A DNA stretch of 38,264 nt from a virus. Every line of letters begins with the position of its first letter. Positions within the stretch are counted from its first letter, which is position 1. The stretch is from IMG/VR virus record IMGVR_UViG_3300045988_016904; one strand, written 5' to 3'. A model generated the notes under the pieces. It was given only the letters and a program-made list of their open reading frames with translations, ran no database searches and was not told the DNA's origin. Shown here one piece after another: positions 2,039-27,975 of the stretch. Position numbers and translations under genes: made by a program.

Positions 2039-2262
2039 GGCGCGGTAGATAACGAGTTGGGCGCTCTCTCCCCAACAGAAGGCCGTTTGAATCGGCCTCG
2101 CGCCATATATATCGCCGATGGCCTCCCGCCGGCGACGAAACCCGGAAACGGGCAAAGCGGTTCCCCGGCACCGTAAGCCGGAGGGATGCGGGGAAGTAGC
2201 AAGGCCGGAGAGCAGCCTTGTGATAAGAGGAAAGAATGCCGGTTCAACTCCGGCCTTTCCCG
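2039..2262 (+). ncRNA. candidate structured RNA (~225 nt) with two tRNA-like acceptor/T-arm modules
   Basis: Module 1 (2039..2105): 7-bp acceptor-like stem, 5-bp T-like stem with loop TTTGAAT, and hairpin 2056..2076. Central domain: GAAA-capped hairpin 2141..2152 nested in helices 2122-2126/2180-2184 and 2128-2132/2165-2169. Module 2 (2190..2262): 7-9 bp acceptor-like stem and T-arm GCCGG-TTCAACT-CCGGC. No credible ORF. Confidence 0.5.
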
Positions 2263-2295
2263 CTATTTTTACTATTTTGCATGAGAGGTGGTGCT

Positions 2296-22725: not shown

Positions 22726-24371
22726 CTTCTGGTTTGGATGAAAACCATTCCCACAACGGTAATTGTGTTCGGATTTGCGTCCAATGGTGACCCAACGCGC
22801 CCTATATCCGAACACGGGGATACTGCCGGAGTAGGAACGCGGTATGTCTTTGATGGGATCTGCGTCAGCCGGTAGGCGGTCACAAATTTCAGGAATCCCG
22901 GCTCGTCATCGTAAACGGTGACGGAATTTACAAGCATTTCAATAAGCATGGCTTTCTGGGTTTCCAGCGGAACCGCATTTTCCCTTACCGCTTTCAGATA
23001 AACCACGACAGATTCCTTTGTGAGCGGAATCACGCCGCGTTCTTCATCGGATAGTTGTGTAGACAGTCCCTTTTTCTGGGCTTCTAATTCGGCAAGCCTT
23101 TCCACAATAGCGTCCGGCGCAACGGAAGCACATTCAAGTGCTTTCGTCAGATTGCGGATTTTATTTTCAATTTCAGAAATCTTTTTGCGTATGACCGGAA
23201 TCTGTGTATTCTTCTGAATGTCTTCCTCTGACTGCTGGGCGGCTACTTCTGCCACAAATTCGATAATTTCGTCTGTCAGTACGTCAAGAGCGTCCTGAGC
23301 CACCACATCTTCCAGCCAGTCCTTCGGGACTGGCTTTTTGTCGCATAAGCGGGCCTTCTTTCTATTGGCGCAGGAATAATAATTGTAAGTCTTCCCGCCT
23401 TTTCCTCTGCCGCACTCTCCCACCATGGGAGCGCCGCAGTGACCGCAGAAAATTTTCCCCGACAAAAGATACGGCACCTTCGCCTTACCTCTAGCTGGGG
23501 CTTGCTCGCTGGCTTTCAGTCTGGATTGTACAGCCCGCCAAAGCTCATCGGATATAATTCTGGGGACGGCGTTGTCTGTGCGAACATCGTCAAACTTGTA
23601 AACCCCGATATATTTTTCGTTCCGGAACACGTTCTTAAAACTGGACTTGTTGAATTTCGTTCCCCGCGTTGTCCGGTATCCGCGGGCGTTGAAATCGTCG
23701 CAGATCGCGGCCACGGTATCGCCGTCTGCATACCGGCGAAATGCTTCCTCCACCAAATGGGCAGTCATGGGGTCGATTTGCAGGCGCTTGTCTACGACAG
23801 TGTATCCTAGCGGTGTAGTGCCGCCTGTACTGTTCCCTTTTCTGGCTGTTTCGCTCATGCCGCGACGTACCTTCTGGGACAGCTCCAGAGAATAATACTC
23901 CGCCATACCTTCCAGCAGGGCTTCCAGAATCACACCCTCCGGGTTCTTGGAAATGCCCTCTTTCGCGGATTCCACGTTACAGCCGTTCTTACGGAGCCGC
24001 ATGCGGGCAATGGCGCTGTCTTCCCGGTTCCGGGCAAATCTGTCCAGTTTGTAAACCAAAACGGTTTTCCATGACGATCTGGCGCTGTCAGCAAGCATCT
24101 GCTGGAACGCTGGCCGCTTGTCCATGCTTGCGTGGGCGGAAATCGCCCGGTCAACATAAATGGCGGCAACCCGGTAGCTGTGGTGCTTGCAATAGGCTAT
24201 CAGCTCCCGGAGCTGCCCTTCGATGGACTGCTCTGTCTGCCGGTCGGAACTGTAGCGCATATACAGGCAGCAGACCGCCTCGCAGTCCGAGGAAAGAACG
24301 GAGGGGTTATCTGCAAACTGCTGTCTTTCCTCCGGCGTAAGAGCCGATAGATCAATTGGTATTGTTTGCAT
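22710..24371 (-). CDS. int: large serine recombinase (integrase)
   Basis: Resolvase-type N-terminus with YMRYSSDRQ (catalytic Ser). Recombinase domain, zinc ribbon (CGHCG...C..C) and coiled coil. Confidence 0.9.
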   Translation of the reverse strand: MQTIPIDLSALTPEERQQFADNPSVLSSDCEAVCCLYMRYSSDRQTEQSIEGQLRELIAYCKHHSYRVAAIYVDRAISAHASMDKRPAFQQMLADSARSSWKTVLVYKLDRFARNREDSAIARMRLRKNGCNVESAKEGISKNPEGVILEALLEGMAEYYSLELSQKVRRGMSETARKGNSTGGTTPLGYTVVDKRLQIDPMTAHLVEEAFRRYADGDTVAAICDDFNARGYRTTRGTKFNKSSFKNVFRNEKYIGVYKFDDVRTDNAVPRIISDELWRAVQSRLKASEQAPARGKAKVPYLLSGKIFCGHCGAPMVGECGRGKGGKTYNYYSCANRKKARLCDKKPVPKDWLEDVVAQDALDVLTDEIIEFVAEVAAQQSEEDIQKNTQIPVIRKKISEIENKIRNLTKALECASVAPDAIVERLAELEAQKKGLSTQLSDEERGVIPLTKESVVVYLKAVRENAVPLETQKAMLIEMLVNSVTVYDDEPGFLKFVTAYRLTQIPSKTYRVPTPAVSPCSDIGRVGSPLDANPNTITVVGMVFIQTRRHALP

Positions 24372-24981
24372 CGTGTTTACTCCTTTTTGCGTTTCGCTTT
24401 ATCACAGTTCGGACGATATACAGGCATGTTCCGATAATGGAAAAGGCCGCGACATAAACGATCGGCGAGGCGTGGCCGGACTGGAACAGGCCAAGATTCG
24501 GGTTTTGCATATCCAGAAAGACATATACCATAAGGAAGATGCCGAACAGAACCGCAAGCCCTGCGGCTCCATAAGTCACACGCTTCCAGTTATGCCGGAC
24601 GGCGGATATTTCTTTATCCATCATGTGGCTGCGCTCTTCCAACCGGGAGATGGCGTTATCTTTTTCCGAGATAAGTTCTTCCTTGTGTGAAATTTCGGTT
24701 TTCAGCCGTTCGATTTCCGCACTCTGGTCTTTCTTCGGCGGGGACAACTCCATCAGCTCATCCAGGGACAGATCAAGGTCAATGGCAATGGCGGTCACAT
24801 CATAGATACTTGGACCCGTCAGGTGGCCGGAGAAAAACTTTTTAACCATGGATTCACTTAGCCCTGTGCTGTCGATAATCTGCTGATTGGTTTTGTGCTG
24901 TTCCTCCTTTGCCCATTTCATCTTTGCGGGCAGATTATCACAAATCGTCGATATTTGTTGTATTATTTTCCGTTTTTCCAT
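24352..24981 (-). CDS. membrane-anchored XRE-like HTH protein (HTH + coiled coil + 2 TM)
   Basis: N-terminal HTH (TNQQIIDSTGLSESMVKKFFSG). TM segments VTYGAAGLAVLFGIFLMVYVFL and IVYVAAFSIIGTCLYIV. Overlaps the int start by 20 nt. Confidence 0.65.
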   Translation of the reverse strand: MEKRKIIQQISTICDNLPAKMKWAKEEQHKTNQQIIDSTGLSESMVKKFFSGHLTGPSIYDVTAIAIDLDLSLDELMELSPPKKDQSAEIERLKTEISHKEELISEKDNAISRLEERSHMMDKEISAVRHNWKRVTYGAAGLAVLFGIFLMVYVFLDMQNPNLGLFQSGHASPIVYVAAFSIIGTCLYIVRTVIKRNAKRSKHDANNTN

Positions 24982-25965: not shown

Positions 25966-26097
25966 ATGCGGGAGGAAGCTTTGAAGATGTTTGAACAGCT
26001 TAGTGAAGAGGACAAGGAAAAGATCATCGCTCTTGCATCTGCTCTTTTACAAGATCAGACAGAGTTTCATAAAGACGTGCCTGTCTCTCCGGTGTGA
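25966..26097 (+). CDS. 43-aa ORF convergent with the repressor gene, overlapping its 3' end
   Basis: AAAGGAG RBS 8 nt upstream. The LKMFEQLSEEDKEKIIALASALLQ motif parallels the repressor tail FMKMYDMLTPERQARLYETLSDLV. Confidence 0.4.
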   Translation: MREEALKMFEQLSEEDKEKIIALASALLQDQTEFHKDVPVSPV

Positions 26098-26371
26098 GCA
26101 TGTCATACATCTTCATGAAAACCTCGGTTCCCTTGCTGGGAGCCGGGGCTTTTTCTGTTTCCGGGGCTTCCTCGGAGAAGTAGGAGACGGGTACACCGAA
26201 GTAGTCGGCTAACTGTGCGACATAGGTGTCACTCGGCTTGCGACCGGCTTTCCAGTTGGACACTGTTTGCTTTGGAATGCCTGCCTCGATGCCAGCTCTG
26301 GACGGCTTCAATCCTTTCTCTTTGCAAAGGTTTACAAAATTATTGTAAAAATTCACATAGTCAATCTTCAT
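26024..26371 (-). CDS. XRE-family (CI-like) repressor
   Basis: HTH segment LKPSRAGIEAGIPKQTVSNWKAGRKPS. Internal ATG with a GGAGG RBS. Confidence 0.8.
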   Translation of the reverse strand: MKIDYVNFYNNFVNLCKEKGLKPSRAGIEAGIPKQTVSNWKAGRKPSDTYVAQLADYFGVPVSYFSEEAPETEKAPAPSKGTEVFMKMYDMLTPERQARLYETLSDLVKEQMQER

Positions 26372-26399
26372 TTTTTGTACAGTCCTCCAAACATTGACT

Positions 26400-26439
26400 T
26401 TTGAGACTTTTGGTGTTGACATTTGGGACTTATGGGACT
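26400..26439. repeat. operator-like 9-mers TTTGAGACT / TTTGGGACT / TATGGGACT
   Basis: Copies at 26400..26408, 26422..26430 and 26431..26439. The latter two fill the promoter spacer. Confidence 0.55.
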
Positions 26440-26444
26440 ATACT
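26416..26444 (+). promoter_or_regulatory. consensus rightward early promoter (TTGACA-17-TATACT)
   Basis: -35 at 26416..26421 and -10 at 26439..26444. Confidence 0.7.
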
Positions 26445-26559
26445 AACGTCATGAACACCGATTCCAAAAAGGGTGCAGAAAATCACGGGGTATGAAATCC
26501 GAGTTTTCGGGAATTCAAACTCCGGCGAGTAGCGGATGGTTTATTGTTTCGGCAAATTC

Positions 26560-26588
26560 AGTATACCATGCGCTACTCAGATTTTCAA
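26560..26588 (-). promoter_or_regulatory. leftward promoter facing the rightward promoter (TTGAAA-17-TATACT)
   Basis: On the - strand: -35 at 26583..26588 and -10 at 26560..26565. Confidence 0.6.
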
Positions 26589-26630
26589 GTCTTTTGTGGA
26601 AAAAATGTTCAAAGAAATTGGCTTCGGCGG

Positions 26631-26670
26631 AAAGAAAAATTCACCCGTGGTTTGGTCACGAGTGAATTTT
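26631..26670 (-). terminator. intrinsic terminator for leftward transcription
   Basis: AAAATTCAC/GTGAATTTT plus inner CGTG/CACG stem. Followed on the - strand by TCTTT. Confidence 0.6.
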
Positions 26671-26822
26671 CCCCAAATTTATTTGCCGAAATGCGCTGCG
26701 TTGGAAGCCCGTATTCCTAAACGGCGAGAAACCCTAGATTCCCGCTTTACTTTCAACAGCAGACCAAACCTGCGTCCTTGACGCACCGTTTCACTTTGGC
26801 AGTTTCGGTTCTGCCCCTCGCC

Positions 26823-26882
26823 CTAACGCATCACGCCACCTTCGTGGTTCGGTACTGGCGGTAACAAAAGTTTGTTGGACAT
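26823..26882 (-). CDS. 19-codon ORF MSNKLLLPPVPNHEGGVMR (leader-peptide-like)
   Basis: GGAGG sits 6 nt upstream of the ATG. The ORF is ~37 nt downstream of the predicted start site of the TTGACT-17-TATAAT promoter. Confidence 0.35.
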   Translation of the reverse strand: MSNKLLLPPVPNHEGGVMR

Positions 26883-26925
26883 AAAGTACCTCCTCACTCT
26901 TTATTTGCCGCAACGGGCTATGGGC

Positions 26926-26954
26926 ATTATAGCGAACCTTTCCGCCGCAGTCAA
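26926..26954 (-). promoter_or_regulatory. near-consensus leftward promoter (TTGACT-17-TATAAT)
   Basis: On the - strand: -35 at 26949..26954 and -10 at 26926..26931. Confidence 0.65.
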
Positions 26955-26995
26955 CCAAACAAACATTTTTTTACTTAAGGAGGAGGGACAAATGG

Positions 26996-27289
26996 ATGGC
27001 AAAACTGAAACTTCCGCAGTCTTACGGGGAGCGGGAGAAGCTGGCAAAGTATATCCGGCAGACGCTGAACACCTACAATCTTCGGAACAACTGGCTGATT
27101 CAGCAGCTTCGGAACGAGGGCTTCATCATCTCCGCGACATCCCTGTGCGACGCGCTGGCAGTTCGGTGCATGACACCGAAGACGGACGAGTTTCTGGCCA
27201 GAGCGGAGCAGATTTGCAAGCTGTACGAGCAGAGCTACTTCGGTCAAACGCGATCCGGGAGCTTGGAAAACGGGTCAGAGCGTTCATGA
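26996..27289 (+). CDS. first early gene, putative small regulator (possibly frameshifted)
   Basis: AAGGAGGAGG RBS. The protein-like signal leaves this frame near 27245 and continues in the -1 frame. Confidence 0.55.
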   Translation: MAKLKLPQSYGEREKLAKYIRQTLNTYNLRNNWLIQQLRNEGFIISATSLCDALAVRCMTPKTDEFLARAEQICKLYEQSYFGQTRSGSLENGSERS

Positions 27290-27354
27290 AAGAGCAGCCG
27301 GACATCTACGAGCGGATTTACCGCGAGACATACGGCAGAGCGCCGAACTTTTGA
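27214..27354 (+). CDS. overlapping ORF or frameshifted C-terminal part of the first early gene
   Basis: The frame reads ..NAIRELGKRVRAFMKEQPDIYERIYRETYGRAPNF. A TTG start with GGAG 5 nt upstream is possible. Confidence 0.3.
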   Translation: MQAVRAELLRSNAIRELGKRVRAFMKEQPDIYERIYRETYGRAPNF

Positions 27355-27366
27355 AAGGAGTTATTT

Positions 27367-27975
27367 ATGGCGAAATACAAAGTTGGGGATAAGGTGCGGA
27401 TTGTGAGCACGCCCCGGTTGGCGCACTGGAACGTCGTTATGAACAAGTGGCTGGGGGAGACCATGACGATCATAAAATCCGGAATCAACAATAGCGGAGT
27501 TTACTATTGCATGGAGGAGGATCGCAACGATTTTCTTGGGCATTGGTGCTGGTACGAAAACATGATTTCCGGCCTTGCCGAGCCTGGGCGGGAACCCTGC
27601 ACCGTGGAACTCCGCTTTGACGGGATGATTACCACGGCCACGCTGAAACGGGGCGGGCGGGACGTGAAGACCGCAGAAGCCCGGTGCAATCCGAAGGATA
27701 CCTACAGCAGATCGGAGGGCGCAAGGGTCGCCGTTGAGCGGCTGTTTGAGAAGAAGCGCAAGGAGGACAAGCCAAAGGAGAGCAAGCCGAAGATGGGGGA
27801 CAAGTTCGTTGTCACGGTAAAGGGCGGTAGGTTTGGCCACGGTTTCGATATCGGTGACATTGTTGTGCTGATAAATATCCAGCAGGACGGATGTTTCCGC
27901 TTGGTTGACAAGAGCGGCTTCATACAAATACTTCATCCGAGTGAGGTTCGCCCCTACAAGGAGAAATCCAAATGA
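27367..27975 (+). CDS. hypothetical protein
   Basis: 202 aa with AAGGAG RBS. Repeated KVGD/KMGD-type beta-rich segments. Confidence 0.6.
   Translation: MAKYKVGDKVRIVSTPRLAHWNVVMNKWLGETMTIIKSGINNSGVYYCMEEDRNDFLGHWCWYENMISGLAEPGREPCTVELRFDGMITTATLKRGGRDVKTAEARCNPKDTYSRSEGARVAVERLFEKKRKEDKPKESKPKMGDKFVVTVKGGRFGHGFDIGDIVVLINIQQDGCFRLVDKSGFIQILHPSEVRPYKEKSK

Follow-up and report, generated by a model that had tools for sequence, protein, structure and literature searches.

The stretch of viral DNA analysed here, 38,264 nt of IMG/VR virus record IMGVR_UViG_3300045988_016904 and referred to below as the window, stems from a temperate phage. Its left-reading genes include a serine integrase, two HTH_3 proteins and FuFi-1, the small-RNA gene with which this report is concerned; on the right-reading side lie a gene for a protein of 97 amino acids (aa), a YqaJ exonuclease and RecT. 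The unit in question lies at positions 26,631 to 26,954 of the minus strand; it is a gene of about 289 nt for a structured small RNA of the FuFi-1 family in a temperate phage of gut Clostridia. A reading made from the letters alone (below, the sequence-only reading) had described it as a self-contained leftward unit with a consensus promoter, a ribosome-binding site (RBS), a short open reading frame (ORF) and a strong hairpin terminator of its own, and each of these elements is present where it had been placed:

26954..26949, 17 nt, 26931..26926, minus strand: sigma-A type promoter TTGACT-17-TATAAT, 11/12 match
26907..26919, minus strand: predicted 5'-terminal hairpin (GCC/GGC) with the predicted transcription start at about 26919
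26893..26889, minus strand: Shine-Dalgarno (SD) sequence GGAGG, 6 nt 5' of the ATG
26882..26823, minus strand: 19-codon micro-ORF MSNKLLLPPVPNHEGGVMR followed by a stop codon, ATG at 26882; homologous ORFs in 94/102 FuFi-1 loci
26670..26631, minus strand: intrinsic terminator, a perfect 14-bp stem (26670..26657 / 26649..26636) followed by UUUUU

The positions of promoter and terminator predict a minus-strand RNA of 289 nt (26919..26631), in keeping with the roughly 290 nt estimated before, which stops short of a leftward promoter-like site and of the repressor gene. A promoter scan over 3.5 kb returned 11 sites of at least 9/12, against 3.3 expected. The weaker rightward promoter-like site TTGCCG-17-TATAGC that had also been pointed out does exist (26905..26933), but it scores only 8/12, lacks the invariant last T and falls below the threshold of the scan. 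The stop codon and the terminator are 152 nt apart; the untranslated 3' region of about 150 nt is hence real in its extent, but it is not passive, as it constitutes the conserved pseudoknotted core of FuFi-1. Even the terminator loop, ACCAAAC (26656..26650), doubles as the 3' strand of a pseudoknot (PK2, see below).

A covariance-model scan matched the minus strand at 26840..26635 to positions 1-175 of the Rfam FuFi-1 model (RF02986) with 85.8 bits (gathering score 59.6; E=4.5e-17), and this is the sole gathering-level Rfam match in the whole window; a permissive scan of the region added only chance-level extras (P14, D12-methyl and others, with E above 1). FuFi-1 was described as an orphan RNA by Weinberg et al. 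(2017, NAR 45:10811; PMC5737381), who counted it among four motifs that end in 3' terminators and have features hinting at a sophisticated biochemical function, judged a riboswitch role improbable for these four motifs, and found no self-cleavage of FuFi-1 (PMC5737381). In the literature searched, FuFi-1 is named only in this publication (PMC5737381) and in no later paper. The sequence-only reading knew of no described equivalent of the unit; that statement has to be withdrawn.

The window copy shares with published FuFi-1 the full-length model match and, except for helix P1, all features of the family that were assessed. The signature hairpin GCAGAACnnAAACUGC followed by AAAGUG is represented by GGCAGAACCGAAACUGCCAAAGUG (26815..26792), and the tail GGUAAAcAAAUUUgG with its intrinsic terminator by GGCAAAUAAAUUUGGGG, the 14-bp stem and the U-tract; the P2/P3/P4 junction forms with 6/6, 4/4 and 7/8 pairs, respectively, and the tertiary pairings with 5/5 pairs in a first pseudoknot (PK1; one G.U included) and 7/7 in PK2. 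Three of the seven P1 pairs are non-standard in the window, likewise in most of the short-linker members shown, and another helix, P0, closes the structure instead. Reportedly, FuFi-1 sits in prophages beside XRE-type genes; this association was re-measured in the present analysis. Firmicutes and Fusobacteria are the hosts in both cases, and the window has an HTH_3 repressor gene 210 nt downstream of FuFi-1 in addition to its integrase, YqaJ and RecT genes. The copy differs from the published motif in its poor P1, in a 42-nt insertion in P4, and in a short linker, so that the ORF abuts the core. As a member of the family it adds nothing new. However, the Rfam model leaves out about 45-230 nt upstream (5' hairpin, RBS, micro-ORF, P0 and a middle domain) that are conserved and covary here, and this extended architecture, together with the cassette polymorphism described further below, may be new relative to the published description of FuFi-1.

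Relatives were gathered by pattern scans of viral contigs, by one scan of species-representative genomes and by sequence-profile searches over the loci so found. The resulting set comprises 102 loci with a FuFi-1 core (L-numbers are labels of related loci); all 22 relatives that were run through cmscan score as FuFi-1. Three pattern matches (L122, L125, L128) are not FuFi-1 and were discarded, and a DNA similarity search in distant mode with 26000-27400 against deposited phages gave no match. The named hosts are Clostridia (Lachnospiraceae, Oscillospiraceae, Acutalibacteraceae, Blautia, Eubacterium), one Peptostreptococcaceae genome and one Fusobacterium. A leader was detected upstream of 94 of the 102 cores with a profile made from nine leaders, and four of the eight misses are contigs that are cut too short. 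Every one of the 94 leaders has an AAAGGAG-type SD and, behind it, an in-frame start codon that opens an uninterrupted ORF; this start codon is interchangeable (TTG 35, ATG 11 and GTG 3 among 54 distinct sequences), and the N-terminal consensus of the micro-ORF reads M-T-K-L-L-x-L-P-(V/A/C)-(P/L/S). A sigma-A promoter, usually TTGAcA/TTGAAA, 17 nt and a TG-extended TAnAAT, is found in 67/67 distinct upstream regions; it is placed (at a score of at least 8.5/12) 29-43 nt before the start codon in 66/67 distinct loci, with one outlier at 73 nt. A terminal 5' hairpin is predicted in 57/57 distinct leaders, its stem sequence varying by lineage. Promoter, leader, ORF and terminator are thus kept across the related phages, the comparison that the sequence-only reading had proposed as a check. 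With the Rfam match over the 3' 206 nt on the one side and promoter, leader and terminator recurring in all of the distinct related upstream regions on the other, the unit is more than a product of chance. Two forms can be told apart. Long-form RNAs have an ORF of mostly 12 codons and, behind it, a middle domain of about 190 nt; the window has the short form, whose ORF of 13-29 codons reaches the core. One relative, L182, carries a skipping-rope RNA (RF02924, 49.9 bits; L182:6029-6125, plus strand) about 800 nt from its FuFi-1 gene, and so brings together two of the four orphan motifs with 3' terminators that Weinberg et al. described.

An alignment of 34 long-form transcripts (A1) was folded with RNAalifold, the two pseudoknots were then added, and the pairs were counted. 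The prediction gives structure along the whole RNA of 365-390 nt; compensatory changes are seen in 58 of its 77 pairs. Once the pseudoknots are included, the 88 pairs are 93.5% paired, versus about 40% when the partner column is slid, and the covariation score amounts to 0.512 versus about 0.11 in the slid controls; none of 500 shuffles reached the observed value. In A1, compensatory changes are seen in P0, PK1 and PK2 alike, P2 covaries, and so do all 11 pairs of the terminator stem; P3 and P4 covary in relatives as well. PK1 joins the loop of the signature hairpin to the tail, with the loop/tail variants CUAAA/UUUAG, CUCAA/UUGAG, CGGAA/UUUCG, CUUAA/UUAAG and CCCAA/UUGGG; PK2 joins the P3 loop to the terminator loop through 7 bp, 6 of which covary in A1.

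Several of the predicted helices lie outside the Rfam model. The leader folds into a stem-loop that holds the start codon in its loop, with UGGUC pairing to GACCA (codons 1-3) and compensatory versions of the stem in L113, L172, L132, L157, L138 and L135; within it the SD pairs weakly with CUUUU (codons 4-5). Helix Pa takes in the stop codon, further helices build the middle domain, and P0, which closes the whole RNA, is formed by ORF codons 10-11/12 and the bases just 5' of the GUAAAC-AAAUUUGG tail. Over both forms P0 occurs as CCCUU/AAGGG, CUCAA/UUGAG, CCUGA/UCAGG, CCAGA/UCUGG, CCCGG/CCGGG, CCCGAAAC/GUUUCGGG and CCCAAAAU/GUUUUGGG, and cognate strands pair better than non-cognate ones (p=1.8e-11). 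The window retains every helix with bases of its own:

26852..26848, minus strand: P0 5' strand CCGAA, ORF codons 11-12; 5/5 pairs with UUCGG 26690..26686
26836..26847, minus strand: small hairpin CCAC-GAAG-GUGG, in the place of the ~190-nt middle domain of the long-form RNAs
26798..26815, minus strand: signature hairpin GGCAG-AACCGAAA-CUGCC; its loop CCGAA (26808..26804) is the PK1 5' strand
26786..26781, minus strand: P2 5' strand GUGCGU; 6/6 pairs with GCGCAU 26696..26691
26759..26773, minus strand: P3 hairpin; its loop GUUUGGU (26769..26763) is the PK2 5' strand, 7/7 complementary to the terminator loop
26700..26757, minus strand: P4 (26757..26750 with 26707..26700), enclosing the lineage-specific 42-nt insertion of two small hairpins (26749..26708)
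26686..26696, minus strand: P2 3' strand GCGCAU (26696..26691) and P0 3' strand UUCGG (26690..26686)
26671..26685, minus strand: conserved single-stranded tail CAAAUAAAUUUGGGG; UUUGG (26677..26673) is the PK1 3' strand

The five PK1 pairs of the window (26808..26804 with 26677..26673) are C-G, C-G, G.U, A-U and A-U. At the site of the P4 insertion, other members carry 0-115 nt. A set of loop, junction and tail sequences (GCAGAACnnAAACUGC, AAAGUGA, AUAGAA, CUGCAA, GUAAACAAAUUUGG) is near-invariant from Clostridia to Fusobacterium. Competition of a leader CCAAA for the UUUGG of the tail was considered and ruled out, since the leader does not covary when the tail changes (e.g., in L133 and L154). 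Two members of group C, L025 and L119, are natural recombinants that combine a P3 loop GCGCUAU with a terminator loop ACAGCC of another type and in which the 7-bp kissing interaction is broken. A conserved CUCC(UU) in the middle domain of the long form is a perfect anti-SD (A1 columns 289-292 versus 49-52) and could pair with the leader AAGGAG in place of Pa; as neither segment varies, covariation does not tell the two pairings apart.

The gene lies within the immunity region of the phage, the neighbouring features of which are as follows:

26416..26444, plus strand: early promoter P_R, TTGACA-17-TATACT, 11/12; overlaps the repressor start codon and GACTTTTG-type repeats
26445..26617, plus strand: conserved part of the early leader, common to phages without FuFi-1; holds an inverted repeat with 20-nt arms (26527..26546 / 26559..26578)
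26588..26560, minus strand: leftward promoter-like site TTGAAA-17-TATACT, TG-extended, 10/12; sequence conserved in all relatives
26024..26422, minus strand: gene of a 132-aa XRE/CI-type repressor (Pfam HTH_3 E=7e-7, weak Phage_CI_repr), located downstream of FuFi-1 in the same orientation
26996..27289, plus strand: 97-aa first early gene, no Pfam match; its RBS lies about 20 nt beyond the FuFi-1 cassette

That 26416..26444 is the early promoter, and hence that the FuFi-1 RNA is antisense to the early leader, follows from phages that lack the cassette, where P_R and its conserved leader are continuous with the early gene and run into the RBS of the 97-aa gene; the sequence-only reading had this relation right. 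The position of P_R is kept in relatives, and the operator-like spacers change with the repressor type. The leftward promoter-like site is a candidate maintenance promoter of the repressor gene. The inverted repeat of the leader (26527..26578) overlaps this site, which faces P_R as in the switches of coliphages 186 and P2. Direct repeats of the GACTTTTG type at 26396-26434 (plus strand) and 26580-26596 overlap the -35/spacer region of P_R and the repressor start codon and are likely operators; the repeats in the P_R spacers of relatives change with the repressor type (e.g., to TGAAC repeats). Within the early transcript, the complement of the FuFi-1 SD, ACCUCCUC (26886-26895), is 90% complementary to GAGGAGGGAC (26980-26989), the RBS of the 97-aa gene; the two can pair, and binding of the FuFi-1 RNA would compete with this pairing.

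Upstream neighbours, searched for with an SD-aware ORF scan, include a divergent SD-preceded ORF that starts at most 250 nt upstream of the FuFi-1 start in 57/67 loci. Downstream, two arrangements prevail: in arrangement (i), which includes the window, a co-oriented gene follows after 100-250 nt, and in arrangement (ii) a small convergent gene ends 2-30 nt after the terminator and is followed by a larger co-oriented gene. The small convergent genes match Cro/C1-type HTH_26 in 11/18 cases and HTH_3 or DUF739 in others, and the larger downstream genes are of the XRE type (HTH_3) in 20/23 cases, with 7 Phage_CI_repr and 4 Peptidase_S24 matches. Whatever the arrangement, FuFi-1 reads towards the repressor gene and is oriented against the early lytic operon. 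Further away in the window, a second HTH_3-like protein of 209 aa (24352-24981, minus strand) with a hydrophobic C-terminal segment is encoded beside the serine integrase and may be a membrane-anchored regulator, and a tRNA-Ile (GAT) gene (2190-2263, plus strand) is found a short way upstream of the long rightward ORF block, which begins with ORFs of 389 and 464 aa.

Comparison with sister phages (96-98% identical in the flanks, the 97-aa gene included) delimits the FuFi-1 gene as a removable unit bounded by inverted repeats:

26618..26975, minus strand: whole FuFi-1 cassette, about 358 bp; in sister phages replaced by about 7 nt, TTTCATC, with the flanks conserved on both sides
26938..26954, minus strand: inverted-repeat arm at the promoter, TTGACTGCGGCGGAAAG, 17 nt, 88% complementary to 26618..26634; holds the -35 box
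26618..26634, plus strand: second inverted-repeat arm, TTGGCTTCGGCGGAAAG, directly after the terminator

Among 28 viral contigs with relatives of the 97-aa gene, 17 have FuFi-1 and 11 lack exactly the repeat-bounded unit, including five with 97-98% identity in the 97-aa gene itself; in these empty phages, P_R (next to the repressor start) and the conserved leader run into the RBS as ...AAAAAATGTTCAAAGAA-TTTCATC-TAAGGAGGAGGG. The repeat arms are perfect in the sister phages, and groups B and C have equivalent repeats of other sequences. Since one arm holds the -35 box and the other directly follows the terminator, neither is part of the FuFi-1 RNA and both are part of the P_R transcript. The presence of FuFi-1 is independent of the repressor type. 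The repeats are not repressor operators, as one and the same repeat is found together with five or more repressor types, and an inverton (invertible promoter) was likewise ruled out, because every inspected copy has the same orientation relative to its flanks.

A second family, made up of relatives of the 64-aa Cro-like gene beside group C FuFi-1, has its insertion site 32 nt before the start codon. At this site, 33 loci carry FuFi-1 and another 33 a 169-bp cassette of a different kind, bounded by the same TTGACTGCGGC repeat; 11 loci have neither a cassette nor repeats. The second cassette (L269:1800-1970; also L276-L283 and about 30 other loci) has its own promoter (TTGACT-17-TATGGT) and terminator, and its predicted RNA of about 115 nt forms one long hairpin (minimum free energy -51 kcal/mol, z=-5.2) that has no Rfam match at E<=0.01. 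As unrelated RNAs share both orientation and position at the same site, it is orientation and position that appear to carry the function.

We suggest, and would put the probability at roughly 0.45, that the cassette is a module that brakes early lytic expression by way of a counter-transcript. Placement, orientation and complementarity point to such a role, and the location in the immunity region makes the regulatory or immunity RNA envisaged in the sequence-only reading a reasonable proposal. The near-consensus FuFi-1 promoter, if constitutive, would fire head-on into P_R transcription and would supply a stable, compact RNA that is perfectly complementary to the early leader beside the RBS of the first early gene; together, the opposing promoter and the complementary RNA would bias the phage towards lysogeny and ensure a tight silencing of the prophage. 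The 5' hairpin and the loading of ribosomes on the micro-ORF would most likely serve RNA stability and/or an ordered co-transcriptional folding rather than the production of an active peptide: the ORF overlaps P0 (and, in long forms, Pa), and a ribosome travelling on it would hence delay the closure of the fold. The highly conserved core, in turn, probably binds an additional conserved partner.

A number of observations speak against the brake. The conservation of loops and junctions across Clostridia and Fusobacterium, on which the assumption of an additional partner is based, is more than plain antisense pairing or transcriptional interference requires. The terminator is not generally bidirectional, as group C and the second cassette, read by eye, lack a U-tract in the direction of P_R. 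In arrangement (ii), no operator shared between the FuFi-1 promoter and the cro-cI region was found, nothing rising above control regions. The sole paper naming FuFi-1 neither assigned a function to it nor found self-cleavage (PMC5737381). Finally, at least four distinct loci with a good core are FuFi-1 genes without leader or micro-ORF (L134:2700-2970, L139:1330-1570 = L165, L182:5067-5249), and the leader can therefore not be essential; in L134 and L139, a promoter-like site directly precedes the core or what is left of the middle domain.

A more far-reaching proposal, which we put forward only tentatively, is that the FuFi-1 motif of 175 nt does not stand alone but is the 3' domain of a 290-390-nt RNA whose RBS and micro-ORF are built into the closing helices, so that ribosome loading and folding would be mutually exclusive, and that this RNA is delivered as an interchangeable, promoter-carrying small-RNA cassette bounded by inverted repeats and destined for the early-lytic leaders of Clostridia phages. 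The cassette would then be a swappable layer of the lysis-lysogeny decision, and in the early mRNA its repeats would form an insulating stem or one cut by RNase III.

Among the alternatives, the one that survives best, although we regard it as rather unlikely, is a trans-acting RNA whose pseudoknotted fold binds a conserved host or phage partner (a protein, the ribosome or a small ligand); the position of the gene would then only set the timing of its expression, and the antisense relation would be incidental. The near-invariant loops, junctions and tail and the covariation of the three tertiary contacts are what one would expect of such an RNA, and Weinberg et al. grouped FuFi-1 with motifs suggesting a sophisticated biochemical function (PMC5737381). 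Any such partner would have to be generic, since FuFi-1 is present irrespective of the type of repressor. However, no co-occurring partner gene was found, the position of FuFi-1 relative to the early operon is strikingly constant, and an entirely unrelated small-RNA cassette can fill the same site in the same orientation.

We consider it improbable that FuFi-1 is an establishment-type leader, in the manner of lambda P_RE or 186 pE, whose promoter feeds the repressor gene. The RNA would here be a conditional terminator, and read-through, set by translation of the micro-ORF or by a ligand, would raise the level of repressor and, where a cro gene intervenes, would run antisense through it. A co-oriented XRE/CI-type gene does follow in both arrangements (about 210 nt downstream in the window, and behind a convergent cro-like gene elsewhere), the 5' end does carry an RBS and an ORF, and codons 10-12 do pair next to the terminator. 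However, the consensus structure contains no conserved antiterminator pairing, with the proviso that no dedicated search for alternative pairings was made, and the terminators are long, followed by U-tracts and integrated into the structure via PK2. In addition, the repressor gene has a conserved promoter-like site of its own, sister phages without FuFi-1 keep the same repressor genes, and a riboswitch function was judged improbable by Weinberg et al. (PMC5737381). A classic leader-peptide attenuator is unlikely as well: the terminator loop is taken up by the conserved 7-bp kissing interaction PK2, and there is no promoterless gene directly downstream, given the promoter-like site before the repressor gene and, in many relatives, a convergent orientation of the next gene.

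Still less probable, in our view, is a dual-function RNA or regulatory leader peptide, in which the translated M-T-K-L-L-x-L-P, or stalling on the micro-ORF, would be the active principle. Translation of the micro-ORF is plausible in view of its conserved RBS: SD and start are always present in the leaders, the start interchanges between TTG, ATG and GTG, and two loci without a canonical start carry an in-frame one upstream. At Leu(-2), Leu(0) and Pro(+1), nearly all codon changes are synonymous (for Pro, CCT in 34, CCC in 9, CCG in 5 and CCA in 4 cases), and L113 and L172 retain K-x-L-x-L-P despite altered nucleotides. Yet the synonymous fraction is no higher in the ORF frame (41/178) than in the shifted frames (33/186 and 45/182), and most of the conserved codons lie inside a predicted helix, the variable codons 6 and 9 being unpaired; it should be noted that helix 1, which covers the Leu-Pro codons, shows no covariation. 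Beyond position 8, the residues follow the RNA, the variable C-terminal half of the peptide mirroring the pairing of codons 10-12 in the covarying P0. Of the comparison between ORF and RNA structure that the sequence-only reading had recommended, the RNA side thus stands, as the helices covary, whereas selection at the level of the peptide is not demonstrable from these sequences. The length of the ORF ranges from 11 to 36 codons over the relatives, and FuFi-1 genes without a leader exist. The suggested stalling at PPVP, dependent on elongation factor P, has to be abandoned: PPVP (PPLP in one copy, L127) is confined to the near-identical lineage of the window, other lineages have LPVP, LPAL or LPCS at this position, the 50-odd other distinct peptides contain a single Pro or P-x-P, and the variation at codons 10-12 is accounted for by their covarying base pairs with the 3' part of the RNA. 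Peptides of 12-19 mostly non-membrane residues also fit poorly to known signalling pro-peptides and to type I toxins, which are hydrophobic membrane peptides of roughly 18 aa or more; most of the ORFs have 12 codons, and the window peptide has a polar C-terminal half.

Very unlikely, finally, is a selfish element resembling a miniature inverted-repeat transposable element (MITE) that spreads for its own sake and is neutral to the phage, for although terminal inverted repeats of 13-17 nt (17 nt in the window), presence/absence polymorphism at an identical site (empty in 11/28 and in about 11/80 relatives) and different cargo between the same repeats would suit it, no clean direct target duplication is seen at the junctions, a search of the window for the repeat matched only its two arms and hence a single copy, neither insertion site nor orientation varies, purifying and compensatory selection on the cargo RNA is strong, and FuFi-1 loci of arrangement (ii) have no repeats.

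When set beside known systems, FuFi-1 would seem closest in its mode of action to the cis-antisense and convergent transcripts made in phage switch regions, with an RNA that is far more elaborate and conserved. The RNAs of that kind, such as OOP, the P_RE transcript, sar and those of 186, are short, have a simple structure and are not known to be conserved in sequence between phage groups. FuFi-1 resembles lambda OOP (PMC5869508), the anti-cro transcript from P_RE, P22 sar and the pR/pL arrangement of 186 in having a short leftward RNA with its own promoter and terminator and promoters that face each other. As in the OOP/sar-type systems, it is the complement of the early rightward transcript in the region of the first early genes, P_R being convergent and the complementarity complete in the window; it differs from them in its 290-390 nt, its pseudoknots, its conservation across bacterial classes and its RBS. 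The prgQ/prgX region of the Enterococcus plasmid pCF10 (Qs, Anti-Q) is controlled by antisense pairing and transcriptional interference, and the product of prgQ is a hydrophobic pro-peptide of 23 aa that supplies the signal with its C-terminus. There, too, a short ORF stands at the 5' end of a structured RNA of about 380 nt that ends in a terminator and is convergent with the transcription of an XRE-type regulator, but the C-terminal part of the FuFi-1 ORF tracks RNA pairing, and no peptide receptor gene is present among the neighbours examined.

The immunity RNAs c4 of P1/P7 and CI of P4 (Rfam C4 family) arise by processing of longer transcripts, and their targets are defined complementary sites. 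Like FuFi-1 they are structured, phage-encoded RNAs, and they act in immunity; however, there is no match in sequence or structure, as Rfam finds only FuFi-1 in the window. Correia-type MITEs of Neisseria are multicopy elements with TA target duplications. They share with the FuFi-1 cassette a short, non-coding insertion in mRNA leaders, with terminal inverted repeats that contain promoter elements and would form a long stem, whereas the cassette is present in one copy at one site, without a clear duplication, and has a highly structured RNA as cargo. Stabilisers at the 5' end of Bacillus RNAs include the aprE leader (a 5' stem-loop combined with ribosome binding) and the STAB-SD of cryIIIA. 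The hairpin at the extreme 5' end of FuFi-1 and the strong SD that follows are akin to them as features of a Firmicute RNA, by functional analogy only, and the SD region of FuFi-1 is also predicted to pair within its leader.

The work on FuFi-1 now has handles that can be tested: the boundaries of the transcript, an RBS and a micro-ORF interlocked with the fold, three tertiary contacts, and a constant position relative to early transcription. Phages that are nearly identical and differ in having FuFi-1, lacking it or carrying the alternative cassette amount to a ready-made natural genetic experiment. The switches of gut temperate phages are poorly understood, and these natural cassette variants bear directly on them. 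If the reading of interchangeable cassettes is true, small-RNA cassettes would constitute a modular, swappable layer of lysis-lysogeny control.

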